A stretch of DNA of 62,225 bases from an uncultured Legionellales bacterium (GTDB lineage: Bacteria > Pseudomonadota > Gammaproteobacteria > JAHCLG01): the NCBI GenBank assembly GCA_964352985.1, contig CAYGUK010000006.1:1-62225 (forward strand), in the 5' to 3' direction. The position numbers and the translations under genes were made by a program. Below, one piece after another: positions 3-61,700 of the stretch. Position 1 is the first letter of the stretch; the number at the start of each line of letters is the position of its first letter. The notes beneath the pieces are model-generated. The model did no database searches. It saw only the letters and a program-made list of their open reading frames with translations, and was not told the origin of the DNA.

Positions 3-2231
3 GTAAACCAATGTCTCGAACTAGGAAAGGAAGATATCTCGATTGCGACTAATTTAATGGAAGCAAGAATTTTATCAGGCGAAGTTAATATATTCGAACA
101 ATTACAACAATTGGTCGCACAACAAAACTTTTGGACTAGTAAAGATTTTTTTCAAGCCAAACTTGATGAACAAACAGAACGATATAAAAAATTTAATAAC
201 ACAGAATATAATTTAGAACCAAATATTAAAAATGGGCCGGGAGGATTACGTGACTTGCATGTCATTTCTTGGGTCGCCAAACGACATTTTCATACTCACA
301 CCTTAAAAGCATTAATCTCACCCGGGTTTATCACAGAAAAAGAATATAAAACCTTAATGCAGGCTGAACTATTTTTATGGAATGTTCGGTTTGCATTACA
401 TAGTATCGCTAATCGACCAGAAGATAGACTTTTATTTGATTATCAAAAACAATTAGCTAAATTATTTCTCTATGAAGATCAGCCGGGCAAACTGGGTATC
501 GAACAATTCATGCAACAGTTTTATCGTCATGCTGAAAAGGTAAGAAACTTAAATGAATTATTGCTACAACTATTTTTAGAAGTCATTGTTGAAGCCAATC
601 AATGTAGTCAAACAACACAAATTCATCCTAACTTTAATGTAGTTGATGATTATATCGAAGCAATTAAGCCCGATTTATTTTTAAATAATCCGAGTTCTTT
701 GTTTGAAATCCATTTAATTCTTGCAAAAAATTTAGCAATTAAAGGGGTCAGAGCAACAACAATTCGACAAATCCGCGAATCTCTACATAAAATTAATGAT
801 GACTTTCGAAAAGATGAAATTAATAAACAATTATTTCTGACTTTATTACAACAAAAATCAAATATGGTCGCACAATTAAGACGTATGAATCGTTATGGTA
901 TTTTAGGTCGCTATTTACCCGTTTTTGGTAAAGTCATCGGTCAAATGCAATATGATTTGTTTCACGCATATACAGTTGATCAACATACACTTATGGTATT
1001 AGGAAATATAGAATTATTTTTAAATCCACAAGAAAATAATAAATTTGCCTTGTGTAGTAACGTGATCAATAAAATTAAACATACTGAATTTGTTTATATC
1101 GCTGCTTTTTTTCATGATATTGCTAAGGGCCGCGGTGGTGATCATTCACAACTTGGCGCAATCGATATTGAAAAATTTTGTGCCGATCATCATATTAATG
1201 CAGAAGATACCATTGATTTATGTTGGCTAGTTGAACATCATTTATTAATGTCAACGACAGCTCAACGACGCGATATCTATGATGAGCATGTCATCGCCGA
1301 CTTCACTGATAAAGTTAAAACACCAGAACGCTTAAACATGCTTTACGTTTTAACCGTTGCTGATATTAAAGGCACCAATGATAAATTATGGAATGGCTGG
1401 AAAGATTCTATTTTAAAAGATTTATACCGGATTGCCCAAAATAAATTTTCCAAGCAACCCAGACACCAAGTCGAAAATATAAGACTGCGTAAACAAATTG
1501 CTTTAGATAATCTCACTGTTTTAGGTTTTAGTGAAGAAACTATTCAAGCACTGTGGCATGATTTAGGAAATAATTATTTTTTAAATAATGATTCAAAAGA
1601 AATTATTTGGCATAGCGAACATATTTTAAATCATCAAACACAAAAACCTTTAGTACTCATTAGCAATCACATTACTGAAGATTCCACCTCAGTATTTATT
1701 TATACTCAAGATAAAAAAGCCCTGTTTGCAACGGCAGTGTCTGTTTTTGGCAAATTATGTCTAACCATTCATGAAGCCCGAATTATTACCTCAAAAAATG
1801 GATATACTTTAGATTCATTTCAAATTTTAGATCAAAATAATCAACCGTTAATTGATGAAGAACAAATAGCCATTCTTAATCTGCAATTATGTAATGCGCT
1901 AGAGCGAGGTAAACCCGTTTCAATAAAACGTCGTCGCTCTCAACAATTAAAGCATTTTTCTTTACCGACAGAAATTCAATTTACCCTTGATTACAAAAAT
2001 AATAGAACTTATATGGAATTAACAACACTCGATCAACCCGGTTTATTAGCAAAAGTTGGTTTAGCATTTGTCGAACTTGGGATTAAAGTGCAAACTGCCA
2101 AAATCGTTACGTTGGGTGAGCGTGCTGAAGACGTATTTTACATTACGGATAAACATAACCAAGCAATTGAAGATCCTACCCTGCAAGATAAGCTAAAAAA
2201 TCGAATCATTGAATTACTCGCACAACCCTAA
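3..2231 (+). CDS. glnD: Bifunctional [protein-PII] uridylyltransferase/uridylyl-removing enzyme, 5'-truncated by the window edge
   Basis: Motifs LEPNIKNGPGGLRD, QYDLFHAYTVDQHT, HD domain HDIAKGRGGDHS, two C-terminal ACT domains (DQPGLLAKVG, TLGERAEDVFYI). The frame is open from position 3, upstream of the called ATG at 57. Confidence 0.97.
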   Translation, partial: VNQCLELGKEDISIATNLMEARILSGEVNIFEQLQQLVAQQNFWTSKDFFQAKLDEQTERYKKFNNTEYNLEPNIKNGPGGLRDLHVISWVAKRHFHTHTLKALISPGFITEKEYKTLMQAELFLWNVRFALHSIANRPEDRLLFDYQKQLAKLFLYEDQPGKLGIEQFMQQFYRHAEKVRNLNELLLQLFLEVIVEANQCSQTTQIHPNFNVVDDYIEAIKPDLFLNNPSSLFEIHLILAKNLAIKGVRATTIRQIRESLHKINDDFRKDEINKQLFLTLLQQKSNMVAQLRRMNRYGILGRYLPVFGKVIGQMQYDLFHAYTVDQHTLMVLGNIELFLNPQENNKFALCSNVINKIKHTEFVYIAAFFHDIAKGRGGDHSQLGAIDIEKFCADHHINAEDTIDLCWLVEHHLLMSTTAQRRDIYDEHVIADFTDKVKTPERLNMLYVLTVADIKGTNDKLWNGWKDSILKDLYRIAQNKFSKQPRHQVENIRLRKQIALDNLTVLGFSEETIQALWHDLGNNYFLNNDSKEIIWHSEHILNHQTQKPLVLISNHITEDSTSVFIYTQDKKALFATAVSVFGKLCLTIHEARIITSKNGYTLDSFQILDQNNQPLIDEEQIAILNLQLCNALERGKPVSIKRRRSQQLKHFSLPTEIQFTLDYKNNRTYMELTTLDQPGLLAKVGLAFVELGIKVQTAKIVTLGERAEDVFYITDKHNQAIEDPTLQDKLKNRIIELLAQP

Positions 2232-2380
2232 CGAAGTATTATTTGATAATACGCAGAGGTTAACATAGTACTACTTTATCGCCTGTTATTGTCAAGTAAT
2301 TCTTAGCTCACTATTCTCCACCACAGATTATTGTTTAACGAAGATTAAAATAAACGTCATTAAGTAAGGTATTAAAAATC

Positions 2381-2938
2381 ATGTTAATTATTATTCAAGT
2401 TATCGCCATTTTCTTTATTTCAGATTTGGTCGCAGGTTATGTTCATTGGTTTGAAGATAGTTATTTTTCAATTCACACGCCGATCATTGGTCCCTTATTT
2501 ATAGTGCCAAATTTAAATCATCATGAGCGACCCTTTGAATTTGTTCAAAAATCTTGGTGGGCAAGTTCGTGGGATTTATGTGTTATTAGCAGTGTATTGT
2601 TAACAGTTAGCATCATTTATCATTGGTGTAGTTGGCAATTAATTTTATTCCTTTTAATCAGCATCAATGCCAATCAAGTTCATAAATGGGCACATAGTTC
2701 TCGTCAACAATGTCCGCGAATCATTCAGTTTTTACAAAAAATAAATCTACTCCAATCACCTCGTCATCATGCAAAACATCATCGATACCCCTTTCGATCA
2801 CATTATTGTCCCATTACGCCATTTGTGAACCCTCTACTTGATAGCATGGGATTTTGGCGAGGAATAGAATGGTTTAATCAAAAATTATTTGGTGTCACTT
2901 GTCGAGAATTTGAAGAACGAAAAATTAATCACATTTAA
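2381..2938 (+). CDS. CarF/TMEM189/FAD4-like His-rich membrane lipid desaturase
   Basis: His boxes GYVHWFEDSY, NHHERP, NQVHKWAH, RHHAKHHR..HYC; hydrophobic segments. Confidence 0.85.
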   Translation: MLIIIQVIAIFFISDLVAGYVHWFEDSYFSIHTPIIGPLFIVPNLNHHERPFEFVQKSWWASSWDLCVISSVLLTVSIIYHWCSWQLILFLLISINANQVHKWAHSSRQQCPRIIQFLQKINLLQSPRHHAKHHRYPFRSHYCPITPFVNPLLDSMGFWRGIEWFNQKLFGVTCREFEERKINHI

Positions 2939-2956
2939 AAAAAACTTGACATAAAT

Positions 2957-2996
2957 TGATAGCCGTTTTCAATTTTTTTAACGGCTATCAGCTTTT
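2957..2996. terminator. Probable intrinsic terminator between convergent genes
   Basis: 11-bp perfect inverted repeat tgatagccgtt (2957-2967) / aacggctatca (2980-2990), followed by gctttt. Confidence 0.65.
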
Positions 2997-3009
2997 AACT
3001 TTTTGTCAT

Positions 3010-3747
3010 CTAAAGTGCTGTTTCGAAATCAAGATTTGATTTTTTACTGTTAAACTGTTGATTGCGCCATTCCACTTCTTTGAAGCGTTGCTCTAATTGA
3101 AAATAGTCATAGAAAACTTGCAACTGTTCTAAATCAATTTGCGCACTCAAGGTTTTATTTAATACTTCAGTATAAGCTTGCTGCAGAGCTAGATACGCTG
3201 TTGACGATGATGTATTTTTTTGTTCCCCCATTGCTTGTAGTTTCTTTTTTAATATTTGTATTTGTAAGCGGTCTTGTTCTAAGATTGATTTTGCTTGATG
3301 AAATTGTTCCCGCACTTCTTTTGGTGATTGCGTCATCAATGACGTATCCAACGCACTTAATGAATAGTAACGATTTTTCTGAATAAGATTAAGAATCTCT
3401 AATCCACGTTGTAATGCGTCTACTTGATCTGCTAAAAATGTTATTCTGGCATCGAGTGATTTATGATGTCGATCACTTTTAAGTAAGGGATAAATACTCT
3501 GCATCACATCTGATTTTTCCAACAAACTATTTGTTTGAATCATGGTGTGATTACCCGTTAAAAACACCACTAACTCTAAACAATTTAATAATCGATTTTC
3601 AGCATGTTGAATTTTATCACTTAAGGATTCATTAACTTCATACCAATGTTCAGACGTTGCCGTGAGAGCGATTTCTAATTGTGTTAAATGTTGGTTGATG
3701 GTGACCAAGGTTTCGTTAAGTTGTTGAAATGTAATTTCGTTCTTCAT
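3010..3747 (-). CDS. Hypothetical coiled-coil protein
   Basis: 245-aa ORF, rich in L/Q/E heptad-like runs; no family motif recognised. Confidence 0.7.
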   Translation of the reverse strand: MKNEITFQQLNETLVTINQHLTQLEIALTATSEHWYEVNESLSDKIQHAENRLLNCLELVVFLTGNHTMIQTNSLLEKSDVMQSIYPLLKSDRHHKSLDARITFLADQVDALQRGLEILNLIQKNRYYSLSALDTSLMTQSPKEVREQFHQAKSILEQDRLQIQILKKKLQAMGEQKNTSSSTAYLALQQAYTEVLNKTLSAQIDLEQLQVFYDYFQLEQRFKEVEWRNQQFNSKKSNLDFETAL

Positions 3748-4080: not shown

Positions 4081-4923
4081 ATGTTTTCAGCAGAAGATAG
4101 AGAAGTAATAGAAACAATTTTTAAAACAATGAAGTTTCCGCATGAAGGTAAGCTAGAGGATCAATTACAATGGATTCATGATCATCGTAAACTCCTTGTT
4201 GAGGTTAAAAGAGTACCAGCAGGAAAAACAACAATACTAATGCCATCAATGTCACCTCAAAATCATGCTTTAGTTGCCATTTTACATGAAAAAATTGGGG
4301 AAGAAGGTATAACTAAACTCCAAACTGAAGATAGATTCAAAAGTCGCTTAAGCGACCTATTGTATATGTTACCACTTACTAAAGTTTTAACTTCTCAATC
4401 ATCCAGTCAATCAAGTTATGCTGGTATGAGAGAGGTCTTAACAACATCTCAACAAGAAGAACTAGAAAAGAAAAAAGAAGCAGAATACGAAGATACCCGA
4501 AGAGCATTTAAAGAAAGTTTTAAGACCTTGATGTCAGGAATTGAATTAGATGAAGGCGATACAGCTTTATCTGAATTATTTGAACATTTATGGGAAGCAA
4601 TGGATGAAAATGGTTTTACCAATTTTTTTGAACAAAATATTGGTCAAAGGGTAGAAACACTTGAGGTATTTGCCGGAAAAGCCGAAATAGAATTTCTAAT
4701 TCCACAATCATTCCGACAACAAAATAGAAAATTATGTTCAGAATTTATAAAACGAGCATTAGGAAACAATCCAGATCGAATTAAACAATTAGAAGGTACT
4801 CACATGTATCAATCATTGATATCGCATTCCGAACTGCAGCCGCCACAACAAAGGAGTATAACAACACATTCTCCTGACGCTGTCGATAGTAGCGCCGTGA
4901 GTTATAAATCAGTAAAAAAATGA
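4081..4923 (+). CDS. Hypothetical protein (effector-like orphan)
   Basis: 280-aa charged, helical ORF with RBS aaggtg; Ser-rich low-complexity patches and tail. Confidence 0.7.
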   Translation: MFSAEDREVIETIFKTMKFPHEGKLEDQLQWIHDHRKLLVEVKRVPAGKTTILMPSMSPQNHALVAILHEKIGEEGITKLQTEDRFKSRLSDLLYMLPLTKVLTSQSSSQSSYAGMREVLTTSQQEELEKKKEAEYEDTRRAFKESFKTLMSGIELDEGDTALSELFEHLWEAMDENGFTNFFEQNIGQRVETLEVFAGKAEIEFLIPQSFRQQNRKLCSEFIKRALGNNPDRIKQLEGTHMYQSLISHSELQPPQQRSITTHSPDAVDSSAVSYKSVKK

Positions 4924-4932
4924 AAGAAAATC

Positions 4933-5985
4933 TCAACGAAACCCACGTTGAATATCATTTAACGCCTCACTGCCTGGACATAACGCTCCCATATCAAGTT
5001 CTCGCAGTGGGGTTTTTGTGGTATTCATTAATCCATGCATGTCGGGTTGTTTTTCATCGATAAATAGCAAACCTGTTGCTAAACGATTTTTCATTAAATT
5101 TTCCATGACATGTTGATGCGCTTTTTCGCGATTGGTGGGGTCGTAAGTTTTATCAACTTTATGGAGTAATAAAAAACTTCCATCATGTAATTGCACTTTG
5201 GTGGTTGTGCCTTCATCATAATCTGCCTTAATTTTTTCTTTGACAGGAATATAATCTGTCATCACGACTTCTTGAATCGCTTCTCTCACACCATGATAAC
5301 TTAAGGCTGAACTATCATGATTATTAAACGTGACACATGGCGAATAAACATCAAGTAGCGCAAATCCCTCGTGTAATAATCCCGCTTTCATCAAAGGCAC
5401 AAGTTGGGTTTTATCACCGGAAAAACTGCGCCCGACAAAACTGGCGCCTAAATTCAAGGCTAATAAAACGGGATCGATATTATTAAATAAATTAACCAAT
5501 CCTTTTTTCGTTGTCGCCCCCTGTGATGAGGAAGGTGAAAATTGTCCTTTCGTTAAACCATATACCCCATTATTTGCAATAATATATAAAACATTCACAT
5601 TGCGTCGAATTGCATGTGAGAGTTGACCAAGCCCAATCGCCAATGAATCACCGTCACCTGAAATATTCACGTATTTAAAATCTTTATACGCCGCATTTGC
5701 CCCTGTTGTTATCGCAGGTGATCGCCCATGAGCAGTATTAAACCCTTGTGCTTTTTGAACGAAATAAGCAGGCATAATAGAAGAACAACCAATTCCACTT
5801 ATTTTAACAATATGATGCGGTGTGATAGAGAGTTCATAAAATGCTTGAATTAAGGCATAAGCAATCGAATCATGCCCACAACCCGCACACATCGTCGACA
5901 CCAAACCTTCATAATCTTGTGGTAATAAACCTAATTCATTTTTTGGGGTTTTACTGTGAACCACTTCAGGGCGTTTAAATGTCAC
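4933..5985 (-). CDS. 2-oxoacid:ferredoxin oxidoreductase beta subunit (TPP-binding)
   Basis: STMCAGCGH, SGIGCSS, HGR, GDGDS..NNGVYGLTKGQFS, SPCVTFN. Start placed at GTG 5985 after RBS aaggag. Confidence 0.93.
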   Translation of the reverse strand: MTFKRPEVVHSKTPKNELGLLPQDYEGLVSTMCAGCGHDSIAYALIQAFYELSITPHHIVKISGIGCSSIMPAYFVQKAQGFNTAHGRSPAITTGANAAYKDFKYVNISGDGDSLAIGLGQLSHAIRRNVNVLYIIANNGVYGLTKGQFSPSSSQGATTKKGLVNLFNNIDPVLLALNLGASFVGRSFSGDKTQLVPLMKAGLLHEGFALLDVYSPCVTFNNHDSSALSYHGVREAIQEVVMTDYIPVKEKIKADYDEGTTTKVQLHDGSFLLLHKVDKTYDPTNREKAHQHVMENLMKNRLATGLLFIDEKQPDMHGLMNTTKTPLRELDMGALCPGSEALNDIQRGFR

Positions 5986-7789
5986 AAGGAACTCCTTCTT
6001 CATGGTGTAAAATTTGTGGCAACACATCTTCCGTACTTATAGGCATGCTGTTATATTGTAATATAGCAATTAATTGTTGCTTCGTCGCATTCGATTCCAG
6101 TAATAATAAAGATCGTAATTGCGCATCTCGATTTTGTTCTACTACATAAATAGTATCATGTTGTGAAATAAAATCTTCAACTTCTTCACAAAATGGAAAA
6201 GCACGAATACGCATATAATTTAAATGTATATTTTTTTCACCTAATAGATATAACACTTCTTGAATCGCAATATCACTACTACCGACGGCAATAATGGCAT
6301 GTCGATTTTTTTTATCATATTGAATAATAGGTTTTGGTACATGACTTTTAATGGTTTCAAATTTTTTCGTTAACCGATTCATAAAATTGAAATAAGTCGT
6401 TGGTTCTTCTGTTCTAAAGCCCAATTCATTGTGCAAAGTTCCACGTGTCAAAAACGCACCACGTTCGGTAATACCCGGTAATAAACGTGGGCAAATACCA
6501 TCACCATCTCTATCGATATAACGTCCAATTTTTTCTAACGTGTTAATTTCGTCAGTTGATAAATGTTTACCGCGTTGATGTTGGTAATTATCATCAAACG
6601 TTAATTCATCACAAATCCACGCATTCATACCAATATCCAAATCACTCAACACAAACACTGGGGACTGGATCAATTCCGCTAAGTCAAATGCCGCCAAACT
6701 CATTTCAAAACATTCACGCGGATCATGGGGAAATAATACGACATGTTTTGTATCTCCATGAGAACAATACGCACAAGTCAAAATATCACCTTGTTGAGTA
6801 CGTGTGGGCAATCCTGTGGAAGGCCCACCACGTTGAATATCAAAAATGACCATGGGAACTTCAGCAAAATAACCGAGACCAATTAATTCACTCATTAACG
6901 AAATACCAGGACCACTGGTAGACGTAAATGCTCTAACACCATTCCAACCAGCACCAAGCGTAATACCAATCGCCGCCATTTCATCTTCGGCTTGAATAAA
7001 GCAAAAATTATTTTTCTTCGCTTCAGGATCAACACGATATTTTTTACAATATTTTTCAAACGCATCCATTAATGACGTCGACGGTGTAATTGGATACCAC
7101 GCGGCAACTGTCGCTCCCGCATAAACGCAACCAATCGCAGCGGCGGTATTTCCGTCGATTAAAATTTTATTTTTTAACAAATCACATTTTTGTAATTTTG
7201 TGGGTAAAGGATAAGATAAGTTTTCCACAACATAGTCGAAACCTAATTGTAATGCTGCAAAGTTTTTATCAATTAAAGATTCTTTACCGCGATATATTGT
7301 TTTAACTTCGTTTTTCACTAATTCTAAATCAATGGCAAGTAACGCCGCGATTGCCCCCACATAAACAATGTTTTTCATTAAAATCGCTTCACGGCCAACA
7401 TGAAAGTGCGCGGCACATAATGAAGATATCGGCACACCGATGACATTAATATCTTGACGCGTTAATTGCGCCATCGGCCAAGAATTATCATATAAATAAT
7501 AGCCACCAGGTTTTACTTCTTTTTCATCTTCTAATAATGTTTGCGCATTCATCGCAACCATTAAATCAAATTGATTGCGTCTTGCGACAAAGCCTTTTTC
7601 ATTCGCCCGTATTTCATACCATGTGGGTCTACCTTGAATATTGGAAGGAAATAAATTTTTTGTCGAAAAAGGCACGCCCATACGCATGATGGATTTCGCC
7701 AATAAATTATTTGCACTTGCTGAACCCGAACCATTCACTGTGGCAATTTTAATTGAAATGTCATTAATTGATGGCGTAATTTCAGTCAT
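5975..7789 (-). CDS. 2-oxoacid:acceptor oxidoreductase alpha subunit (fused gamma-alpha)
   Basis: NGSGSASAN, YPITPSTS, QAEDEMAA, TSGPGISLM, QRGGPSTGLPT. Start placed at ATG 7789. Confidence 0.93.
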   Translation of the reverse strand: MTEITPSINDISIKIATVNGSGSASANNLLAKSIMRMGVPFSTKNLFPSNIQGRPTWYEIRANEKGFVARRNQFDLMVAMNAQTLLEDEKEVKPGGYYLYDNSWPMAQLTRQDINVIGVPISSLCAAHFHVGREAILMKNIVYVGAIAALLAIDLELVKNEVKTIYRGKESLIDKNFAALQLGFDYVVENLSYPLPTKLQKCDLLKNKILIDGNTAAAIGCVYAGATVAAWYPITPSTSLMDAFEKYCKKYRVDPEAKKNNFCFIQAEDEMAAIGITLGAGWNGVRAFTSTSGPGISLMSELIGLGYFAEVPMVIFDIQRGGPSTGLPTRTQQGDILTCAYCSHGDTKHVVLFPHDPRECFEMSLAAFDLAELIQSPVFVLSDLDIGMNAWICDELTFDDNYQHQRGKHLSTDEINTLEKIGRYIDRDGDGICPRLLPGITERGAFLTRGTLHNELGFRTEEPTTYFNFMNRLTKKFETIKSHVPKPIIQYDKKNRHAIIAVGSSDIAIQEVLYLLGEKNIHLNYMRIRAFPFCEEVEDFISQHDTIYVVEQNRDAQLRSLLLLESNATKQQLIAILQYNSMPISTEDVLPQILHHEEGVPCDI

Positions 7790-9682: not shown

Positions 9683-10036
9683 TTATTTCTCCGCCACAAT
9701 AAAAACACAAGACCGAGGTTTATCATTCACCGCTCGACTAATATGGCCTTGCCCAGTTAAATCATTTAGTAAAACAATATCGCCCGGACCAAATCGTCTC
9801 ACTGTGCCATTGCCAATTTCAATATCGACTTCACCCTTAAGCATTATCATATATTGTTTACATGGCGCATTATGCCAATCATAGTGATAATCTTTTTTTG
9901 TTTCGCGCAAAATCAGTTTATTCACGGCAAGTTCTGAACTTAAAAAGCCAATATTTCCTTGATCATGCAAAGGCACAGAAATTTCTTCAAAATGAGATTG
10001 ATTATCCGAACCGGTATAAAGATGTGTGATATTCAT
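9683..10036 (-). CDS. Cupin-domain protein
   Basis: WHNAP..Q..I.L.G.V.IE..G..R.FGPGD..L..D.TG.GH cupin pattern; ATG 10036 overlaps the upstream stop (ATGA). Confidence 0.8.
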   Translation of the reverse strand: MNITHLYTGSDNQSHFEEISVPLHDQGNIGFLSSELAVNKLILRETKKDYHYDWHNAPCKQYMIMLKGEVDIEIGNGTVRRFGPGDIVLLNDLTGQGHISRAVNDKPRSCVFIVAEK

Positions 10037-10503
10037 TTTGTTGACTTTCTCCATTTTTTGCTGGGAACAAGCTTAGCTTTATTTATTTTAATAAAAACTC
10101 GCAATAGACGACAGTGATTTTTATTTTGTGCATTTGTTAAAACAAATGCTGAACGATGATAAGGTCGTTGTTGAAAATGAAAATTTAATATTATCATAAA
10201 CGGATGAATAAAACTTTCACCACAAAGTTGTGCGATTTCGCATCGTTGATTTGAAAATTCTATTATCCATTTATCATCGACTAAATATTTTATTTTTACA
10301 ATTGATTGGTGGTGAGTAAATAAATAATATAACTTTAATTGTTTGTGAAAATAAAAAATAATAAATACCCATAAACTAATTTTTATATAGAGAGGTAAAT
10401 CAAGGATAAAAACTATAATGCTTCCACCCAAATGACTGAATATAAGAAAAATTAGAATTTGCCAATGCGATTTTATGTGAAGCTCAAGTTGTGTTAACGC
10501 CAC
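10033..10503 (-). CDS. ygfX: YgfX/CptA-like membrane protein
   Basis: Two N-terminal TM segments, C-terminal RLLRVFI motif, position directly downstream of sdhE. Confidence 0.7.
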   Translation of the reverse strand: MALTQLELHIKSHWQILIFLIFSHLGGSIIVFILDLPLYIKISLWVFIIFYFHKQLKLYYLFTHHQSIVKIKYLVDDKWIIEFSNQRCEIAQLCGESFIHPFMIILNFHFQQRPYHRSAFVLTNAQNKNHCRLLRVFIKINKAKLVPSKKWRKSTK

Positions 10504-10735
10504 GGATCATTTCCACCAGTTTATGCAATTGCTCATCCCCTGGTGTTTCGCGCCCGGTTAACCAAACAAATAATTCTTGATCACTAAAAACTAATAATTC
10601 TTTAAATAAAATTTTCCAGTGTAGGTCAACATCATCATATTGTTGAAATAAAAAATTTTCTAATAAAATATCGAGTTCCAACATGCCGCGACGACATTGC
10701 CAAATTAAACGCTTTTTTTCTAAATCGATAGCCAT
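10484..10735 (-). CDS. sdhE: FAD assembly factor SdhE
   Basis: WQCRRGMLELD signature; divergent from ygfZ. Confidence 0.95.
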   Translation of the reverse strand: MAIDLEKKRLIWQCRRGMLELDILLENFLFQQYDDVDLHWKILFKELLVFSDQELFVWLTGRETPGDEQLHKLVEMIRGVNTT

Positions 10736-10808
10736 GAAGTGATTTTCCTCGAGCACGATTTCTGCTACAGTAGTCGACTAATTATTAATACTACTGTAAA
10801 TAAATTTT

Positions 10809-11858
10809 ATGGACAAGACTTGGCAAAACTTTTTAGAACAAAATCACGCTAATTTGCTAAAAGATCGCGTCACTGACTTTGGTCATCCCAAAGAAGAATT
10901 GATTGCAGCGCAAAAAGAATTAGTTTTAACCGATTTATCACACAAGGGCTTAATCAAAGTATCAGGCCCTGATGCAAAAACTTTTTTACAAGGTCAACTG
11001 ACTTGTGATCTCAATGACATTGACGAATCACTCAGTCGGTTAGGTGCACATTGCAATCCTAAGGGGCGGATATTAGCCGCATTTCGACTTTTTAAAATTG
11101 CCAATGATTATTTTTTATTTATGCCAAAATCCATTATTGCTGCCACATTAGCTCAGTTACAAAAATATGCGATTTTTGCCAAAGCAGAATTATCAGACTG
11201 TTCTGATCAATGGATTAGAATTGGCGTTTCAGGCCCAATTGCTGCCACCGTCATTAAAAATATTTTAGATGAAGTTCCACAAAATATTGATCAAGTTCTA
11301 CAACGTCATGAAGTCATCGCCGTTAGAATTAATGGCCCCATGCCACGTTATGTTTTATTTGGACCTAGCAATAAAATGCTAGAAGTTTGGTCTACACTCA
11401 GTGAAACATGTAAATGTGTGGGAGCCGATGCTTGGCAATTACTCAATATTATTGTGGGATCGCCAACAATATATCCCGCCACCATTGGTCACTTCACGCC
11501 GCATCAAGTTAATTATCAATTATTAAATGGTGTCAGTTTTAAAAAAGGTTGCTACACCGGACAAGAAATTGTGGCGAGAATGGAACACTTAGGCAAACTC
11601 AAAAGTCACATGGTTCGTGGCATTATTACGGGTAAAACCATTCCACGCCCCGGTGATGAAATTGTCACAATGAAAAATAATGAAGAAATTGATGTCGGTG
11701 ATATTGTGATTGCCAAACCAGACGGTCAAGGTAGTTTTCAACTCCTTGCTGTGATGAAAGATGCTTTTGTTAAAGATGATTTATGTTACATTAAAAATCG
11801 TCCCGATAATAAAATAAAATTTTTACCCCTCCCGTATCATATTAAAAAACCTGAATGA
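10809..11858 (+). CDS. ygfZ: Folate-binding Fe-S cluster repair protein YgfZ
   Basis: KGCYTGQE signature; G.DA..FLQGQLTCD. Confidence 0.95.
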   Translation: MDKTWQNFLEQNHANLLKDRVTDFGHPKEELIAAQKELVLTDLSHKGLIKVSGPDAKTFLQGQLTCDLNDIDESLSRLGAHCNPKGRILAAFRLFKIANDYFLFMPKSIIAATLAQLQKYAIFAKAELSDCSDQWIRIGVSGPIAATVIKNILDEVPQNIDQVLQRHEVIAVRINGPMPRYVLFGPSNKMLEVWSTLSETCKCVGADAWQLLNIIVGSPTIYPATIGHFTPHQVNYQLLNGVSFKKGCYTGQEIVARMEHLGKLKSHMVRGIITGKTIPRPGDEIVTMKNNEEIDVGDIVIAKPDGQGSFQLLAVMKDAFVKDDLCYIKNRPDNKIKFLPLPYHIKKPE

Positions 11859-14047
11859 AGATTGAAACCTACCATTTATCACTGCATGGCATGCATTCAG
11901 CAAGTGTTGTTAAACAAATTAAAAAAAACCTTCTAGCACTAAATGGCGTGAAACAAGTTAGCATTAATTTTGCCGAACATAGTGCGGTCATCAAAGCTGA
12001 AATCGAATTTCTTTTTATCCAAGAAGCGCTGGAAAAATTAGGTTTTCACGCAGTTTTAAATGAAACTAATGTAGATGAATTGAACAATCGATCCCAAGAT
12101 AAAAAAAGGTATTTGCCTTTGCTACTTAAAACCATTGTTGCTGGGATTATTGGTATAGCCATATTCATGGGTTCACACTTGCATTATTATCCCCCAGCCC
12201 AGCTAACAAATGGCATGTTGATTTGGACATTGATAGCGCTTCTCACCTTAGTTGTTTTAATCTATTCAGCAGGTCATTTTTATTTGGATTTAATCAAAAC
12301 TAAATTTAATACGCCTTACTCTTTATTTATTATTGGTGTGACAATTGCTTTTATCTATTCATTATTAGTTTTATATTGTCCATTACTATTTCCAACACTT
12401 GCAAGACACCTTTATTTTGATGCCATCGCTTTAATAATTGCTATAACGAATTTGGGTAAATTCATTCTAGAAAAAATAAAAACACAATCTAATGCTACCC
12501 TTCAACAATTAATAAATTTACAACCCACACTCGCACAGATTGTCGATAATAAAGGATCCGAAAAAAGCATTACGATTGAAGAGATAAAATTAAACGATAT
12601 ATTACGCATAAAACCTGGCGAACAAATCCCCGTTGATGGCAATATCATATTAGGCGAATCACACATTGATGAATCCATGTTAACAGGCGAATCACATGCC
12701 ATAAAAAAAACCAAAGATGAATATGTGCTAGCAGGTTCGATCAATAAATCCAGCTCAATTTTTTATAAAGCAACTAGAATAGGACAGGATACAACACTAG
12801 CAAAAAAAATTAGCCACTTACAAAAAGCACTGTCGTCAAACTCATCACTTAATATCACACTCGAAAAAATAACAACATTATTTTTTATTCTTGTTTTACT
12901 TTTAATCATTATTTCTAGCGTTTTATGGTATTACGTTGGCCCACAACCAACTATAAATTATGTTATTCCCACAATAATCTCACTACTCATTATTTCAAAT
13001 CCAAAAGGATTTAGACTAAGTGCTAAATTTCCAATTAAAGTCGCTCTAAATAAAGCAGCAAAAAAAGGGATTTTATTTCAACATGCTAATAACTTATTAA
13101 ATACAGCAAAAATTTCAACCGTTATTTTGAATAAAACTGGCACACTGACAAAAGGCACCCCCACCGTTACGAATATTTATGCGTTTAATCAACAAAGCAT
13201 TCACGATATGTTAGCTATCGCTGCGAGTATTGAAAAACATTCAAGTCATCCTATCGCTAAAGCTATTGTTCATAGTGCGCGATTAGAAAAATTATCATTA
13301 TTTGCTACTAAAGATTTTCAATCCTTCGAAGCACAAGGTGTTTATGCGCGAAATGGTGATACGCATTTACGTTTAGGTAATGTCGAATTCATGCAAAATA
13401 ACAATATTCTGGTTTCAAAAGACTGTGAAAATCAAGCAGACTTTTATGCCGCACAAGGACAAACACCATTATATCTGGCTATGAATGAAATTATTATTGG
13501 TATAATCAGTCTGTCTGATCCGATTAAACCCACAGTGATAGAAGGTATTAAATGCCTGCAAAAAAATAATGTTAAAGTGATTTTGCTAACAGGTGATAAT
13601 CAAAAAACAGCTTATAGTATTGCTATGGAAATCGGTGTTGATGATTTTTTTGCTGAACTATCTGCAAAAGCTAAACAAGAAAAAATAACAGAATTTCGTC
13701 ACAAAAATGATGTCATTGCTATTTTAAGTAACAAGCACATAGACTCTACGAATCACATTACAGATATTCGCATTGAGGTTTACAACGAGTATGATAAGTT
13801 GATTAATTCTACAGATATCACATTAATGAAAAATTCATTACTAGCAATTTCTGATGCAATAGATATAGCCAAAACCTCCGTAAAAAAAATTAAGCAAAAT
13901 TTAAGCTTCACTCTAATTTACAATTTATTGTGTCTTGCCGTGGCCGCAGGAATACTCTATCCATTTTGTGGATTATTGTTAAATCCGATTGTCTCAGCTG
14001 TTGCGCTAGTTTTATCATCGCTGCTTATTGTGATTAATTCTATTTAA
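11855..14047 (+). CDS. Degenerate CopA-like P1B-type ATPase (catalytic and metal-binding residues substituted)
   Basis: Architecture retained (HMA fold, PGEQIPVDG, LTGES, HP, TGDN, YN) but GMHSASV, NPK and NKTGT replace GMxCxxC, CPC and DKTGT, and there is no GDGxND. Confidence 0.88.
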   Translation: MKIETYHLSLHGMHSASVVKQIKKNLLALNGVKQVSINFAEHSAVIKAEIEFLFIQEALEKLGFHAVLNETNVDELNNRSQDKKRYLPLLLKTIVAGIIGIAIFMGSHLHYYPPAQLTNGMLIWTLIALLTLVVLIYSAGHFYLDLIKTKFNTPYSLFIIGVTIAFIYSLLVLYCPLLFPTLARHLYFDAIALIIAITNLGKFILEKIKTQSNATLQQLINLQPTLAQIVDNKGSEKSITIEEIKLNDILRIKPGEQIPVDGNIILGESHIDESMLTGESHAIKKTKDEYVLAGSINKSSSIFYKATRIGQDTTLAKKISHLQKALSSNSSLNITLEKITTLFFILVLLLIIISSVLWYYVGPQPTINYVIPTIISLLIISNPKGFRLSAKFPIKVALNKAAKKGILFQHANNLLNTAKISTVILNKTGTLTKGTPTVTNIYAFNQQSIHDMLAIAASIEKHSSHPIAKAIVHSARLEKLSLFATKDFQSFEAQGVYARNGDTHLRLGNVEFMQNNNILVSKDCENQADFYAAQGQTPLYLAMNEIIIGIISLSDPIKPTVIEGIKCLQKNNVKVILLTGDNQKTAYSIAMEIGVDDFFAELSAKAKQEKITEFRHKNDVIAILSNKHIDSTNHITDIRIEVYNEYDKLINSTDITLMKNSLLAISDAIDIAKTSVKKIKQNLSFTLIYNLLCLAVAAGILYPFCGLLLNPIVSAVALVLSSLLIVINSI

Positions 14048-14122
14048 ATAAGTCACTTATCTACATTAATTAAGTGAGTAATAATTTTCATTTTCATATT
14101 TTTTAAAAAATTTAAACATTCC

Positions 14123-14158
14123 AAAAAAAAAAGCCTGCAAAAAAAATTTGCAGGCTTT
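14123..14158 (-). terminator. Intrinsic terminator of htpG
   Basis: aaagcctgcaaa / tttgcaggcttt hairpin (14130-14158) followed on the minus strand by a long U-run. Confidence 0.85.
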
Positions 14159-20157: not shown

Positions 20158-21582
20158 ATGTTGGGACTATTTGATGATACATTTATTGGGGCAATCCAGC
20201 AAAGTTTTACAGACTACACGAGGTCGCAAGGACAGCGTGCTGGTCTAGTCGATTCTATCTATTTCAACAACCTTATTATAAGCATGAAATCAATTCAGTT
20301 TAATTTCGGAGAAATCCATTTGGATGATTATCCAGAAGCGATATTAAAACTGACTCATCAAGTTGAACATCTTATCATCCAAATATCAAAACATATCGCT
20401 GAATTACCAAATCAGGATTTAAAAAAATTATATCTGGATATGTTACGCGAAATTAAATCATATATAGCGCAAAAACAGCATAAACACTTTTTAACAATTA
20501 AAACAAAATATCAACATTTAAATAAACTAGTACCCTATTCTATTGGCGACAATATTATGCGAGAAGTTGCAATTGAACCTGTAGAAGGTTCTGTTCCACT
20601 AGATCAACACGAAATAAAAAGATGGGACGAAGCTTCTACACCATTTTTTACTGATGACGTAGTCGGAAATATTAAAAGTAGATTAAGTGATCAAGCAAAA
20701 GCTTTAAAACTACATAGTGATTATCTTAATCAAAATACCACAATCAAGTTACTTCAAGGGATAGAGCAACTCAAGATAAATAATAAATTATTACGATGTC
20801 CTCTTTCACACAGAAAAGAAATAAGCCAGTTATTTGCTAAACTAAACACCATATTTCAGTCGATCGATACATCAGTTTTGTCTATTGATTCTGCAGAAGG
20901 TCAACAACAGCAAGATGATCCTACTCAAGCTTTATGGCGCAAAATAAATCAAGAATTACTCGATCGAACTAATCAATTTTTACGTCAACTTTATGAGGAA
21001 ATAATTAATACTCACCAAACATCAATTCCCCAACTGCTATCTGAAAGATTACAAGAAGAAAATATCCGCTTATCACAAGCCCAATTTTATGATCGATTAG
21101 CTTGTTTACTTTATTTTTTCGTCCCATTTCGAAGGGTTTTATCAGGTTTAGGTATACTTAATATTTGCTATACTTTCTTGTGTTGTTTTTGTGATGATGT
21201 GAAAGACTACATTTGTGGTACAGATCATTCTATTTGTTATGAGGGTGATAGTCCGTGGGACGCGCAAAATTTTACTGATTTTGTAGAAAACCGTATCGTA
21301 AATTCAGATGAACCGCTCGATTGCTGTTGCACTTTAACAAGATTTGGTTTATTTACACCTTATAACACAGCCTTAGCCTTAAGACAAAAAGCAACCAACA
21401 TTAAAACGAACCCGATTAATTTAATTCAAGCACAACCAGTAACACTAGAAGAAAGTAGACAAAGTCTTGATTTATTTTTTCAGCAGTCGTCTTTAACGCA
21501 AATTTCATTATATGGTGGGACGACGTGCCAGCCCTCAGCACCACCACGACAGCACATGACCTTTGGTAATACTACCTCATAA
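20158..21582 (+). CDS. Hypothetical helical protein with Cys-rich hydrophobic C-terminal region (effector-like)
   Basis: 474-aa ORF with RBS ggag; CYTFLCCFC, CCC, terminal QPSAPP. Confidence 0.75.
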   Translation: MLGLFDDTFIGAIQQSFTDYTRSQGQRAGLVDSIYFNNLIISMKSIQFNFGEIHLDDYPEAILKLTHQVEHLIIQISKHIAELPNQDLKKLYLDMLREIKSYIAQKQHKHFLTIKTKYQHLNKLVPYSIGDNIMREVAIEPVEGSVPLDQHEIKRWDEASTPFFTDDVVGNIKSRLSDQAKALKLHSDYLNQNTTIKLLQGIEQLKINNKLLRCPLSHRKEISQLFAKLNTIFQSIDTSVLSIDSAEGQQQQDDPTQALWRKINQELLDRTNQFLRQLYEEIINTHQTSIPQLLSERLQEENIRLSQAQFYDRLACLLYFFVPFRRVLSGLGILNICYTFLCCFCDDVKDYICGTDHSICYEGDSPWDAQNFTDFVENRIVNSDEPLDCCCTLTRFGLFTPYNTALALRQKATNIKTNPINLIQAQPVTLEESRQSLDLFFQQSSLTQISLYGGTTCQPSAPPRQHMTFGNTTS

Positions 21583-38017: not shown

Positions 38018-39973
38018 ATGTACAACATGTTCGAAAAAATACGCAGACTTATTTTGGGGCCACCTCGTAATCCACTCAATCCTGCAACACGCAAACACAT
38101 TGCGTTAGTTGCTGTCCTTGCTTGGGTAGGCTTAGGAGCTGATGGACTTTCATCTTCTAGTTATGGACCAGAAGAAGCTTTTCTCGCGCTGGGAAAATAT
38201 CACCATTTAGCGCTTTATTTAGCATTGGCTATTGCCGCCACGGTTTTTATTATTTCATACTCCTATAACCAAGTTATCGAACTTTTCCCAAATGGTGGTG
38301 GTGGCTATAAAACAGCGACTAAACTATTAAATCCAACGATGGGATTATTATCAGGCGCCGCTCTCATAGTTGACTATGTTTTAACAATTGCAATTTCTGT
38401 TGCAAGTGGCGTGGGAACAATTTTTAGTCTTCTACCTAGTCAATGGCAATCTTATAGTTTAGAAGCAGATGCGTTAATCGTAATAATTTTAATCGTCCTT
38501 AATCTCCGAGGAATGAAAGAATCGATTAAAATTTTATTACCCATTTTTGCTGGATTTGTTATTACACATATATTTTTGATCACCTATGGTATTTTTTCAC
38601 ATGGTTCTCAATTACCGATTATTGTAAATAACGCCGTCTCTGAAACGCACGTCGTAGCAGCGAAAATGGGATGGATAGTTTTATTAATTTTACTCGTAAA
38701 AGCCTATGCCTTAGGTGGTGGTACTTATACTGGATTAGAAGCTGTTTCCAATAATGTTAATACGCTTGCTGAACCACGAGTAAAAACGGGTAAATGGACC
38801 ATGTTTTACATGGCAGTCTCACTGAGTATCACCGCTGGTGGGATCACCTTTTTATATTTATTGTGGCACGTTCAACCCGAACCTGATAAAACTTTAAATG
38901 CAGTTGTATTTGGATCTATTTTAGCAAATTGGCATTATGGCCATGCGATTTTAATTACTTCTTTAGCATTTGAAACAGGTTTATTATTTGTCGGTGCGAA
39001 TACTGGTTTTCTAGGTGGTCCCGCCGTACTATCCAATATGGCCCTCGACTCTTGGGTACCCAATCGTTTTCGAAATTTATCAAATCGTCTTGTCACTCAA
39101 AATGGTATTATTTTGTTTGGCCTTGCTGCCTTATTTATTTTGACGTGGAGTGATGGTCATGTTTATTATCTGGTTGTGCTTTATAGTGTTTCCGTTTTTT
39201 TAACTTTTTCTATTTCATTGTTGGGCTTGTGTAAACATTGGATTTGTAATCGCCCCGCTAATAGCCGTTGGTTTTTGAAGTTATGTTTATGTTCAATTGG
39301 CTTAATTATTTGCGTGAGTATTTTACTCGTTACATTTTTTACTAAATTTTTTACGGGCGGTTGGTTTAGTGGTTTAATCATTGCCGCTGTTGTTACCATG
39401 TGTATTATGATTAAACGTTATTATCGTAACACAGCCGCTTTATTATCAGCTGCCGATAAAATATTTGCTCAAGAGTTGCCAGAACACGAAGGAAAAGATC
39501 CTGAACTAGATTATGGAGCTCCCACTGCCGTATTTTTTATTAATAAAAGTCGTGGTGCTGGCATGCACACGTTACTCTGGGCACAACGGTTATTCCCCAA
39601 CCAATTTAAAAATTTCGTCTTTGTGCGAGTAGGTGTTGTCGATGTCGAAAATTTTAATCGTGACAAAGAATTAAACGCGATGCAAAAAGATGTCGAAAAT
39701 GAATTAATGTATTTTACAAATTTTTCACACCAACAAGGTATTGCTGTAAAGTGCTATCGGGATTATGGTATTGATCCAGTTGATAAACTAACCACCCTCG
39801 CTGAAAGAATTAACAAAGAGTTTCCCAATAGTATCTTCTTTTCTTGTCAATTACTCTTCAGTAAAGAAAATTGGATACAACGGATTTTACATAATAATAC
39901 AGCAAATAGTTTGCAACGCCGGTTACATTTAGCAGGTATGCAAATGGTTATTTTACCCATGAAGTTATCTTAA
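38018..39973 (+). CDS. APC-family permease (KimA-like K+/amino acid transporter)
   Basis: GADGLSSSSYGPEE, PNGGGGY, DYVLTIAIS, YTGLEAVSN, C-terminal soluble domain with LHN.TA..LQRRL. Confidence 0.9.
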   Translation: MYNMFEKIRRLILGPPRNPLNPATRKHIALVAVLAWVGLGADGLSSSSYGPEEAFLALGKYHHLALYLALAIAATVFIISYSYNQVIELFPNGGGGYKTATKLLNPTMGLLSGAALIVDYVLTIAISVASGVGTIFSLLPSQWQSYSLEADALIVIILIVLNLRGMKESIKILLPIFAGFVITHIFLITYGIFSHGSQLPIIVNNAVSETHVVAAKMGWIVLLILLVKAYALGGGTYTGLEAVSNNVNTLAEPRVKTGKWTMFYMAVSLSITAGGITFLYLLWHVQPEPDKTLNAVVFGSILANWHYGHAILITSLAFETGLLFVGANTGFLGGPAVLSNMALDSWVPNRFRNLSNRLVTQNGIILFGLAALFILTWSDGHVYYLVVLYSVSVFLTFSISLLGLCKHWICNRPANSRWFLKLCLCSIGLIICVSILLVTFFTKFFTGGWFSGLIIAAVVTMCIMIKRYYRNTAALLSAADKIFAQELPEHEGKDPELDYGAPTAVFFINKSRGAGMHTLLWAQRLFPNQFKNFVFVRVGVVDVENFNRDKELNAMQKDVENELMYFTNFSHQQGIAVKCYRDYGIDPVDKLTTLAERINKEFPNSIFFSCQLLFSKENWIQRILHNNTANSLQRRLHLAGMQMVILPMKLS

Positions 39974-58740: not shown

Positions 58741-61700
58741 ATGTCCTCAGAACTTCTTACTGCAATAAAAAATAATAATATCGAAAATGCTATGCTCGCT
58801 TTACAACGCATTGCTGGTCGAAGACAGGGATTTAATTATGCTCGATACTTTGCGCAATATTTTCATAATGGTTACCCACTGATTAACTTTGTAAAAAGTC
58901 CAGAAATGTTAACATTACTCGTTACCCATGGAGCAAAGGCAAATGTTAGAGATAATGATGGTAAGTATTTATTTGATTATCTCTTTAAAGGTGCCAATCT
59001 GGATTTATTAAAAAAGTTATTACTACTAGAAAATATAGGGATGAAAGATGAATTAGGGTCTTATGTTTTAACCTTAGTAAAAGAAGAAAAATTTGATCAA
59101 CTTGAAATTATTCTTGCTTATGCCGCGAGAAAAAATATAAACAATCTATTTACTTGGTATAGCACAAGCACAAATTATTTCTCGATTCATTATTTAGTGG
59201 CAAGTGGAAACGTAGAAATGTTGCGTTATTTAGTTTTAAATGGCGCAGACGCAAACAAAAAAATAAATAAAAGTGAACAAACCTGTTTAGATTTAGCCAT
59301 TGAGAAAAATCGAGTTGAGGTAGTCCGATATTTATGCACCATAGATAACATTACCACATCAACACTATTAAAACTTCACATTTACCACGCAATAAAAGCT
59401 CAAAACGGACAAATGGCTAAAATATTAATAGAGTACGCGAAAAAACAAGGAATCGATTATAACTTAGATTATTACTATACCACTAAAAATAATATAAATA
59501 ACTTTGCAATTCATCACACTATTTTAAACGCAGATTATTTCTCTTTAGATTTATTAATAAAAAATAATGCGAATATAAATTTAAGAAATTCAGCAAATAA
59601 AACACCGATCGAATTAGCTTTTGATAAAGCCCATTATTATCTGGCAATAAGATTATTAGAATGTGATGATTTAGAAATAACCCCATTATTACTTCAGGAT
59701 ATAATCGTAGTTGCAGCTAATAATAATAATTTAGAACTATGCCAAGCTGCACTTGCTTTTGCTAGTCGGAAAAACATCCAACTGAATTTAAACTACTATT
59801 ATTACTCAAAAGAAAACAGACTCCCAATTCACAGATTTAGTATTCATTTGGCAAGTGCTCACCAAAATTTTGATATGTGTCGATTACTTGCTGAACGCAA
59901 AGCTAATCCTTATCATACAAGGGAAACAAATCTTAATGCGTTTAATTTGATGAAGTTTGAAATTGATCAAATCATAACTATATCTATAACTTACGATCCA
60001 GATGTTACTGAAGCAACTCTCATTGAGAATATTATACGTAGTCTAAGAGGTCCTTCAGATAAACTAAAAGATTATGCTAATTTCAGAGATGAAAATTTTA
60101 GAGAGAAAAGTATTAATTCACCCGATTTATTGTTATTTTTGCTCAACCATGGTGCCAATATAAAAGGAGCCATATTAAATTTAAATCTAGATGAAGTAGA
60201 TTTTACTCTTTGTGAATTAAATCAAAATCAAATCCAATATTGTTTCTCATTAGGCGTACCGCTAACTAGACTTGGACCTCAAGTTGAAATATTAAAAGAT
60301 CAACAAATAACACTTTATAATATGGTTCAAGTAAAAAATGCGATTGATTTAGGCTTTAATCTCAACAATATAAGAATGCGGAATATTGTCATTTCGACAT
60401 TTGAAGAGCTCGAATCTATTTTAGCTCATCGTGATAATTTACAAGGATTTAAACTTAGCCATGATTTTGATATCTCCACCTTAAAAATTACAGAAAATGA
60501 TTTACTAGCGAAATTACCAACTGATATTTTTTCTTTACAACAATATATTGAATTGATCTCCAACTATTTACCCAATGATATTCGTCCCCCTAAAATCATC
60601 TACGATAATAATATTCCCATAGAGAATTTAACGCTCGATGATTTAAAACAATTTAAAGCTTGGCTACAGCGATATATGTTTAAAATAGCGATGATTAAAC
60701 AAAAAGCAGATCCAACCCCGGATTGCTTGAAATTTAATGTGAAAAATGAAGAACTAAATGCAGATCATCTTAAAAATTTTAAAGATTGGTTAATTTTACA
60801 TAGACAAAAACTCGATTTTTTAAAACCAAACTATTTACAAGATCTTAATTTCACTAACCAAGATTGCAATATCTCGGAATTAACTAATGAAGATTTGTTA
60901 CATTTTAGAAATTGGCTACAAACCACTGCTGAAAAAATAGCACCACTTGGCGATATTCATCCAATAACGATACGTGTCAACCAAGATTTGAGTAAAATAT
61001 CACAAGTTTTCAATGGAGGAATTAATCTCAAACTGATACAAGACTTATTAGACTTATATTTCAAACATTCGCACTCAAAATATTTTTCCTTTGCCCACAC
61101 AGATGGTGTTAAAAAATTAAGACAATTTGTAGCAGAGTTAACTACACAAAAAGTCGATCCCAATGAAACATTATCAAGTGAAAATTTAAATAAACTATAT
61201 AGTATTATCTGTCAACGAGGACAACGCTTAGTGAAACATCCCGACCGTGATTATTTTCATCAACCTTACAAATATACCAACCAACTCTATTTCGTCTTGA
61301 TTTGGCTAATGGGCCGGAATGATGGCTATAAATTTTCAGAAATGATACCAAGTTATGATGAATCAGTTTGGCAACAAATTGCTTTGTCTGGAATTGATTT
61401 CTATTCTGTGCCATTTGCTAAAATGTATCGTGCAAGCTTCCAAAAAAGGGATCATCATCCTATGCTTTATAATGTTGAAGATATCATTCGAAATTTAGTT
61501 GAAACAGGTAAATTGATTCGTGTATATGATCCTGCTGGTGCTAATCATCAAGAGTTTACGGCAAAAGAAACCAAAGAATTATTCGCAACCTGCCCTACTC
61601 TAATCACTACTATGCAAGAAAAACATGAGGAAGAATTAAAACAAAAAGCCAGTCGAGGTGATATTGTTTCTGATAAAACTTTAAATGAACTTTATCGTTT

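Follow-up and report, generated by a model that had tools for sequence, protein, structure and literature searches.

The analysed window is the whole stretch of 62,225 nt from an uncultured Legionellales bacterium (contig CAYGUK010000006.1 of the assembly GCA_964352985.1, designated here as genome G000). It contains a gene (position 11855–14047, plus strand, TAA stop codon at 14045–14047) encoding a 730-aa homologue of CopA-type P1B-ATPases, designated P0001, in which the residues required for catalysis and copper transfer are replaced. With a probability of roughly 65%, P0001 is a non-catalytic CopA derivative that has been retained as a protein. An earlier note on this DNA had proposed a pseudo-enzyme kept under selection and not a neutral pseudogene. 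This proposal is supported by a comparison of the reading frame with simulated decay, by the conservative character of the amino acid replacements, by the distribution of constraint among the protein domains and by a second open but degenerate orthologue in another genus (genome G001). 

The gene is located immediately after ygfZ (349 aa, position 10809–11858, plus strand), the upstream member of the pair, whose product has the GCV_T fold (Pfam GCV_T, 62.2 bits) and carries the KGCYTGQE motif at residue 246. The stop codon of ygfZ and the start codon of P0001 overlap in the sequence ATGA (11855–11858, plus strand), as had been noticed previously. An identical 4-base overlap and the KGCYTGQE motif at residue 246 were also found in G001 and in a third genome, G002.

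Functional motifs and predicted structure of P0001

The frame of P0001 comprises 730 uninterrupted codons. The Pfam search revealed the HMA domain (40.6 bits, above 24.8), the E1-E2_ATPase domain (138 bits) and the Hydrolase domain (75.9 bits, matching only positions 2–146 of the 191 profile positions). Among solved structures, the best matches to P0001 are copper pumps, to which it is homologous nearly from end to end: the CopA proteins of L. pneumophila (3rfu/4bbj; E-value of 1.4e-104 for 3rfu) and A. fulgidus (AfCopA, 3j09/7r0g; E-value of 1e-96 for 3j09). It shares with them the arrangement of HMA, MA/MB, M1–M6 and the A, P and N domains. However, it differs from these pumps in its NKTGT, NPK, SNKHID and LVLSS sequences, in the cysteine-less HMA domain and in the residues of the copper entry site. 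All of the motif losses and retentions listed in the earlier note were borne out by the sequence and the alignments; the motif coordinates given below are on the plus strand.

The phospho-acceptor motif DKTGT is replaced with NKTGT (13130–13144), where the Asp is changed to N426 (codon AAT, 13130–13132) in the column occupied by the Asp of 3rfu and 3j09. The CPC motif of M4 is replaced with NPK (N382-P383-K384; 12998–13006, AAT CCA AAA), which aligns with the CPC of the same two structures; each change of a Cys codon to AAT or AAA required 2–3 base changes. The loop GMxCxxC of the HMA domain reads G12-MHSASV-18 (11888–11908) and lacks both cysteines, although the HMA fold is still recognised and the beta-alpha-beta-beta-alpha-beta fold is still modelled. 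The Mg2+ hinge motif GDGxND is replaced with S625-NKHID-630 (13727–13744). The ungapped alignment A3 retains the last Asp of this motif and the 273-row MAFFT alignment gives a 4-residue insert at this place, but the motif is destroyed in both. The MxxSS motif of M6 reads L718-VLSS-722 (14006–14020), where the Met ligand is gone and both Ser residues (S721, S722) are present. The retained motifs are T277-GES of the actuator (A) domain (12683–12694), H465-P466 of the nucleotide-binding (N) domain (13247–13252), the phosphate-binding T579-GDN of the P domain (13589–13600) and Y689-N690 in M5 (13919–13924).

The residues of the AfCopA copper path given in the available part of PMC9433437 are the entry residues M158, E205 and D336, the CPC cysteines C380 and C382, the residues Y682 and N683, and M711, S714 and S715. 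The P0001 equivalents, identified by conserved column, are P154, L205, E337, N382, K384, Y689, N690, L718, S721 and S722. Thus, all four sulfur-ligand positions are lost (Met to P154, Cys to N382, Cys to K384 and Met to L718), as are the two entry carboxylates (L205, E337). A different result was obtained for the ATP-binding residues of AfCopA, which, according to the accessible part of PMC11213822, include the HP motif, three glycines and the Thr and Asp of TGDN. P0001 has kept H465, P466, I467, G495, G508, T579 and D581, and A493 takes the place of one Gly. In the N domain as a whole, 20 of the 23 conserved columns are retained, and P0001 probably still binds nucleotide, as these residues suggest.

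Such losses do not represent ordinary variation within the family, because nearly all of the 268 nearest homologues keep the motifs: DKTGT was found in 268/268, CPC in 266/268 and GDGxND in 267/268 of them. These 268 canonical homologues together with five focal proteins made up the 273 rows of the focal alignment. The number of near-invariant family residues kept was 40/62 for P0001, 18/62 for the degenerate G001 copy, 60/62 for the G002 copy and 62/62 for both the C19 and C24 proteins. P0001 did not reach the cut-off of the copper subfamily profile NCBIfam TIGR01511 (358.4 versus a cut-off of 397; 618 for the G002 orthologue) and passed that of the heavy-metal P-type profile TIGR01525 (404.4 versus a cut-off of 346.25; 644.8 for the G002 orthologue). 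Judging by the established mechanism of P-type ATPases, P0001 would be incapable of being phosphorylated or of pumping copper because of the motifs that it has lost.

Modeling of P0001 using AlphaFold2 (25-row alignment) led to a full CopA-like fold with an eight-helix membrane domain and the A, P and N domains (pLDDT 81.8, pTM 0.72). Confidence was about 90 pLDDT for the N domain and was weaker at M4 (361–390), in the former GDGxND region (620–650) and in M5–M6. The hydrophobicity profile contained seven peaks above the threshold, with M4 below it. The model superposed best on the E1-state AfCopA structure 7r0g (TMq 0.81, TMt 0.90, rmsd 2.9). It also resembled ATP7B with the substitutions C983S/C985S/D1027A (7xuk/7xun; TMq 0.79–0.80). 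The engineered mutants AfCopA D426N and ATP7B D1027A are neutralised at the same position as N426 of P0001. However, these are laboratory changes in working pumps, while the change in P0001 is natural and is accompanied by the loss of the whole metal path.

Orthologues at the ygfZ locus and the second CopA

The order is represented by only three species genomes (G000, G001 and G002), each belonging to its own genus. In all three of them, sdhE is divergent from ygfZ, and ygfZ is followed by a P1B-ATPase gene with the ATGA overlap. In addition, glnD is located near this block on the same contig in G001 and G002, and htpG is the next gene in G000 and G001, with the htpG of G002 placed on another contig. 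In 27 ygfZ loci representing other families of this class, and likewise in the flanks of the 80 best metagenome ygfZ loci, no P-type ATPase gene was encountered. The coupling of ygfZ with a P1B-ATPase gene is special to this order.

The G002 copy (L003, gene position 1435–3477, minus strand, contig C33) encodes an intact 681-aa CopA containing CPC, DKTGT and GDGINDAP. Its identity with P0001 (41–42%) is the highest of any protein found. It occupies the same place and has the same overlap as P0001, but differs in its full set of catalytic and copper motifs, in the absence of the N-terminal HMA domain and in an approximately 5-fold shorter branch. The coupling with ygfZ was therefore in place before catalysis was lost. 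The coupling alone does not indicate a new YgfZ-linked role of P0001, because the intact pump of G002 has it too. Copper damages Fe-S clusters, and YgfZ-dependent processes help to maintain them; a plausible ancestral reason for the coupling is the harm of copper to these clusters.

The G001 copy (L034, gene position 4406–6142, contig C23) is an open frame of 578 aa, which bears the name 'hypothetical protein' in its source, a Legionellales bacterium metagenome-assembled genome. It resembles P0001 in its place, the overlap, the open frame, the change of the phospho-site Asp to Asn, the loss of both CPC cysteines and the retained Pro. Its motifs are NKNSL at the phosphorylation site, S-L-P-M-G in place of A-C-P-C-A, LGVN in place of TGES and NEDN in place of TGDN. 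The HMA domain and the N-terminal helices are deleted, and Pfam recognises only the E1-E2_ATPase domain (60 bits), the HAD domain being undetected. The AlphaFold2 model of this relic (pLDDT 68.8) was confident in the A domain and the N/P core and poor in the membrane helices. The protein was a singleton in a library of 5.8e9 clusters. The ygfZ linkage, whose conservation the earlier note had suggested checking together with that of the Asp-to-Asn change and the CPC loss, was found in 3/3 genomes; the two losses recur in G001, but not in G002. At the position of the second CPC Cys, K384 of P0001 sits mid-membrane in M4, and a Met is located there in the G001 relic. Convergent to the relic, a gene for an ankyrin-repeat protein was found (L034, 6115–7542; Ank_2, 30.4 bits). 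Ankyrin-repeat proteins are typical of bacteria living inside eukaryotic hosts.

Phylogenetic analysis without the G001 relic placed P0001 as a sister to the G002 copy (94/89), the end branch being 2.36 for P0001 and 0.45 for the G002 copy. When the relic was included, the three ygfZ-linked genes formed one clade (95/88), within which P0001 and the relic were paired at 99/87, both having long branches. The species tree of the three genera was nearly a star (HtpG; concatenate of 4 markers). The approximately unbiased test rejected neither the grouping of P0001 with G002 (p = 0.085) nor that of the G001 relic with G002 (p = 0.115). Among the 32 columns changed in both P0001 and the relic, 8 have a common derived state (overlap p = 0.02), and the A-to-S and A-to-G changes flanking the CPC site are also common to both. 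As far as the sequences allow us to judge, neither a single loss of catalysis nor two separate losses is decisively favoured by the tree, the approximately unbiased test or the shared states.

The presence of a canonical copA elsewhere in the genome, a point raised earlier, was confirmed. G000 contains exactly one other match to P0001, namely a canonical 766-aa CopA on contig C19 (L002, 1103–4117). This gene is preceded by a MerR-family regulator gene and followed by a gene for a membrane-anchored Cupredoxin_1 protein (119 aa). The canonical CopA of G001 (L009, 1492–4088) is likewise followed by a gene for a small membrane-anchored Cupredoxin_1 protein (127 aa) and lies among genes for resistance-nodulation-division and outer-membrane-factor efflux. 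The canonical CopAs of G000 and G001 are sisters (98/94). In G002, the search with P0001 as the query gave no second P-type ATPase match at E <= 1e-30, the ygfZ-linked pump being the only one. Since the genome with the intact copy gave no second match, the spare pump occurs in exactly the two genomes where the ygfZ-linked copy is disabled. This distribution points to the C19 CopA as the protein that presumably took over copper export and released P0001.

Selection, decay and alternative explanations

The reading frame of P0001 contains no in-frame stops, compared with 31–77 in the other five frames, and its composition by codon position is coding-like (GC1 0.415, GC2 0.314, GC3 0.249). The frame of the G001 relic is also free of stops (41–54 in its other frames). 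Neutral decay was simulated starting from the copA of G002 or C19, with an AT-biased spectrum, a transition/transversion ratio of 2 and no indels. Drift to 85% amino acid identity produced 6–7 stops on average, and none of 400 runs remained stop-free; drift to 67% identity produced 15–17 stops. When the 350 fast codons alone were simulated to 62% identity, 7.3 stops arose and 0/1000 runs were stop-free.

The character of the replacements was assessed at 238 secure ancestral columns, those at which G002, C19 and C24 share the residue of the family consensus. P0001 is changed at 104 of these columns, with a mean BLOSUM62 score of 0.00 versus -0.66 +/- 0.15 in simulations of neutral missense change (0/500 as high). 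For the relic the mean was -0.27 versus -0.83 +/- 0.13 (0/500 as high). Aligners favour similar residues, which is a bigger issue for the gappy G001 row.

Constraint is distributed unevenly among the domains. The identity of P0001 to the G002 pump, given here with that of the working C19 CopA to the same pump, was 0.56 and 0.56 for the A domain, 0.40 and 0.38 for the N domain, and 0.31 and 0.27 for MA/MB. The corresponding values were 0.40 and 0.65 for M1–M2, 0.31 and 0.60 for M3–M4, 0.47 and 0.68 for P1, 0.34 and 0.59 for P2, and 0.53 and 0.69 for M5–M6. In the pooled slow parts, P0001 did not differ from the canonical protein (133/304 versus 127/303, Fisher p = 0.68), while the pooled fast parts differed strongly (137/350 versus 219/348, Fisher p = 3e-10). 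In a partitioned maximum likelihood (ML) analysis, the end branch of P0001 was 1.26 in the slow partition versus 0.44–0.79 for working CopAs, and 5.7 in the fast partition versus 0.28–0.40. In addition, the ATGA start is kept in 3/3 genomes despite different N-termini (HMA present in P0001 and deleted in G001 and G002). Neutral decay was rejected because of the open frame as compared with the simulation, the conservative replacements, the domain pattern and the kept ATGA start. As judged from these sequence comparisons, P0001 is not decaying neutrally, and selection at the protein level is now domain-dependent. Of the two observations that the earlier note had taken together as contrary to its view, an intact CopA in the closest relative was found (G002), but neutral decay was not.

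All these characteristics allow us to assume the following course of events. The ancestor of the order would have had a Cu(I)-exporting CopA translationally coupled to ygfZ, of which P0001 would be the positional orthologue. A second CopA (contig C19) would have taken over copper export, and the ygfZ-linked copy, released from pumping, would have lost the phospho-Asp, the sulfur ligands, the two entry carboxylates and GDGxND. The A, N and MA/MB parts would have stayed constrained while the ion-path helices and the P domain diverged. The resulting P0001 would be a non-hydrolysing, nucleotide-binding membrane pseudo-ATPase made in a fixed ratio with YgfZ.

Several observations weigh against this explanation. 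The ancestors used in the simulation are stand-ins, and the mutation model is simple and excludes indels. By ML, even the slow partition is accelerated about 2-fold (more than 10-fold for the rest). At the secure ancestral columns, retention depends only weakly on the degree of conservation (0.67, 0.52, 0.54 and 0.50), and therefore much of the old constraint is really gone; only 40 of the 62 near-invariant residues are left. The G001 relic, at 21% identity and with TGES and TGDN lost, is much more eroded than P0001, and one common conserved function of the two proteins is not evident. In searches of 5.8e9 clusters and of 1.84e9 representatives, no protein exceeded 37% and 36% identity with P0001, respectively, the second search yielding roughly 55,000 P1B homologues. 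The distances available leave the synonymous sites saturated and are too large for a ratio of nonsynonymous to synonymous substitution rates (dN/dS). The alignment behind the AlphaFold2 model consists mostly of working CopAs, so that the model indicates compatibility with the fold and is no independent proof. Finally, no RNA run was listed among those containing the stretch.

As regards the function of the retained protein, the role of a nucleotide sensor suggested by the earlier note would fit the retained N domain (20/23 columns). A more specific version supposes a locked P-type ATPase, with Asn in place of the phospho-Asp and K384 in the Cu(I) site, that holds ATP in its intact N domain without turnover and now serves at the membrane, sensing nucleotides or stress or offering a docking site, in concert with either the Fe-S repair factor YgfZ or the live CopA. 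This version is speculative and, on the whole, unlikely. Some other P-type pumps have built-in charges, and the tethered positive charge of K384 at the former cation site recalls these. In SERCA, replacement of the Asp with Asn makes ATP binding tighter; no open paper confirming this was found.

P0001 could also be a dead partner subunit that acts by binding, either in a heterodimer with the C19 CopA or as a membrane tether for YgfZ. Regulation of a live protein by its dead paralogue is common, all three genomes preserve the 4-base overlap with ygfZ, and the constraint falls on the A and N domains, which are cytosolic. There is also a published P1B-type Zn pump that is dimeric (PMC13677743, available part). 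However, the coupling with ygfZ predates the loss of catalysis, as G002 shows, and requires no new role, and co-occurrence in three genomes has no statistical power. We consider this assignment doubtful.

Slow decay of a pseudogene after the acquisition of the second CopA is also improbable. The open frame would then be a leftover or would reflect selection against harmful truncated membrane products. The intact pump at the same place in the closest relative, the replacement CopA in both genomes with a degenerate copy, the approximately 5-fold longer end branch of P0001 relative to its orthologue, the loss of 22 of the 62 near-invariant columns and the weak gradient of retention are in line with decay. 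The deletions and the 21% identity of the G001 copy could represent its further stage. But 730 codons of P0001 contain neither a stop nor a frameshift, where mild drift gives 6–7 stops and 0/400 stop-free runs, and the 578 codons of the relic are open as well, against 41–54 stops in its other frames. Neutral missense changes would be less conservative than the replacements seen (0/500), the A and N domains match those of G002 as well as those of a working CopA do, and the ATGA start has been kept in 3/3 genomes through the remodelling of the N-terminus.

It is very improbable that P0001 still actively transports some other substrate by an unusual chemistry. The full architecture, the TGES, TGDN, HP, YN and SS motifs and the Lys at the former metal site (K384) would agree with this, but in the established mechanism P-type catalysis is defined by an acyl-phosphate intermediate, which Asn is unable to form. 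The Mg2+ motif GDGxND is destroyed too, DKTGT is present in 268/268 nearest homologues, and AfCopA D426N is among the mutants assayed in PMC9433437, according to its available part. An artefact of assembly, binning or sequencing can practically be dismissed. Although the source is a metagenome-type assembly of 242 contigs, two additional DNA runs of the same study gave contigs with 0 differences at both sites (X2, 12920–13764; X4, 12976–13243), the glnD, sdhE, ygfZ and htpG synteny is shared with G001 and G002, and the changes number in the hundreds, all of them in frame.

Gene surroundings and significance

The sdhE gene (Sdh5 family, position 10484–10756, minus strand) is divergent from ygfZ, and this synteny is kept in G001 and G002. 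Between the stop codon of P0001 and that of the convergent htpG, a terminator-like hairpin was found (14130–14158), flanked by A and T runs on both sides. To judge by its sequence, it is likely the end of the ygfZ–P0001 transcript. The promoter scan revealed no excess of sites (19 versus 18.1 +/- 4.6 in shuffles). Downstream of sdhE, there are a YgfX/CptA-like membrane ORF (10033–10503, minus strand; Pfam 21.4 bits, under the cut-off of 27.3) and a small cupin-like ORF (9683–10054, minus strand; 16.8 bits, under the cut-off of 23.5), each overlapping its upstream neighbour by about 20 bases. Three large ORFs of the window had no NCBIfam match at E <= 1e-10 and may encode lineage-specific proteins (20158–21582, 474 aa; 38018–39973, 651 aa; 58741–62112, 1123 aa).

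The G000 genome (4.18 Mb, 242 contigs) is 99% complete. The stretch was found in four DNA runs, all from one biofilm-metagenome study. The population across these runs is essentially clonal. Only two low-depth differences were found, both in run X3 (11970 T>A and 14034 T>C), which read in frame as F39Y and I727T and are too few to estimate the ratio of nonsynonymous to synonymous polymorphism (pN/pS). One contig of run X1 (depth 19.4, approximately 3 times that of the organism) joins position 11275 to 14080, so that the 3' portion of ygfZ and all of the P0001 ORF are missing from it. Note that this join is based on only 20 letters on the shorter side under a lax likeness threshold, and it probably comes from another organism or is a chance join. 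A metagenome scan with P0001 found 0 relatives, and in the scan with the YgfZ alignment of the order the closest match had 43% YgfZ identity.

Few membrane enzymes have been studied as thoroughly as the P-type ATPases. In the open literature (subscription journals were outside the scope), including the available part of the review PMC10654040, no P-type or P1B ATPase was found described as naturally non-catalytic and kept by selection, and no link between YgfZ and CopA was found in the parts of the literature that were accessible. The case also represents an annotation trap: P0001 passes TIGR01525, and automatic pipelines would probably call it a working transporter.

The reach of the finding is limited, since the lineage is known from three uncultured genomes. 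Within it, a working pump (G002), a disabled full-length protein (G000) and an eroded open relic (G001) form a natural three-state series with the same place and coupling. This series makes it possible to ask which parts of a pump stay useful without pumping; here these are the actuator and nucleotide-binding domains. If P0001 does act as a locked sensor or platform, a functional pseudo-P-type ATPase would have been described for the first time, and the G001 relic would be a further example of a recurrent route.

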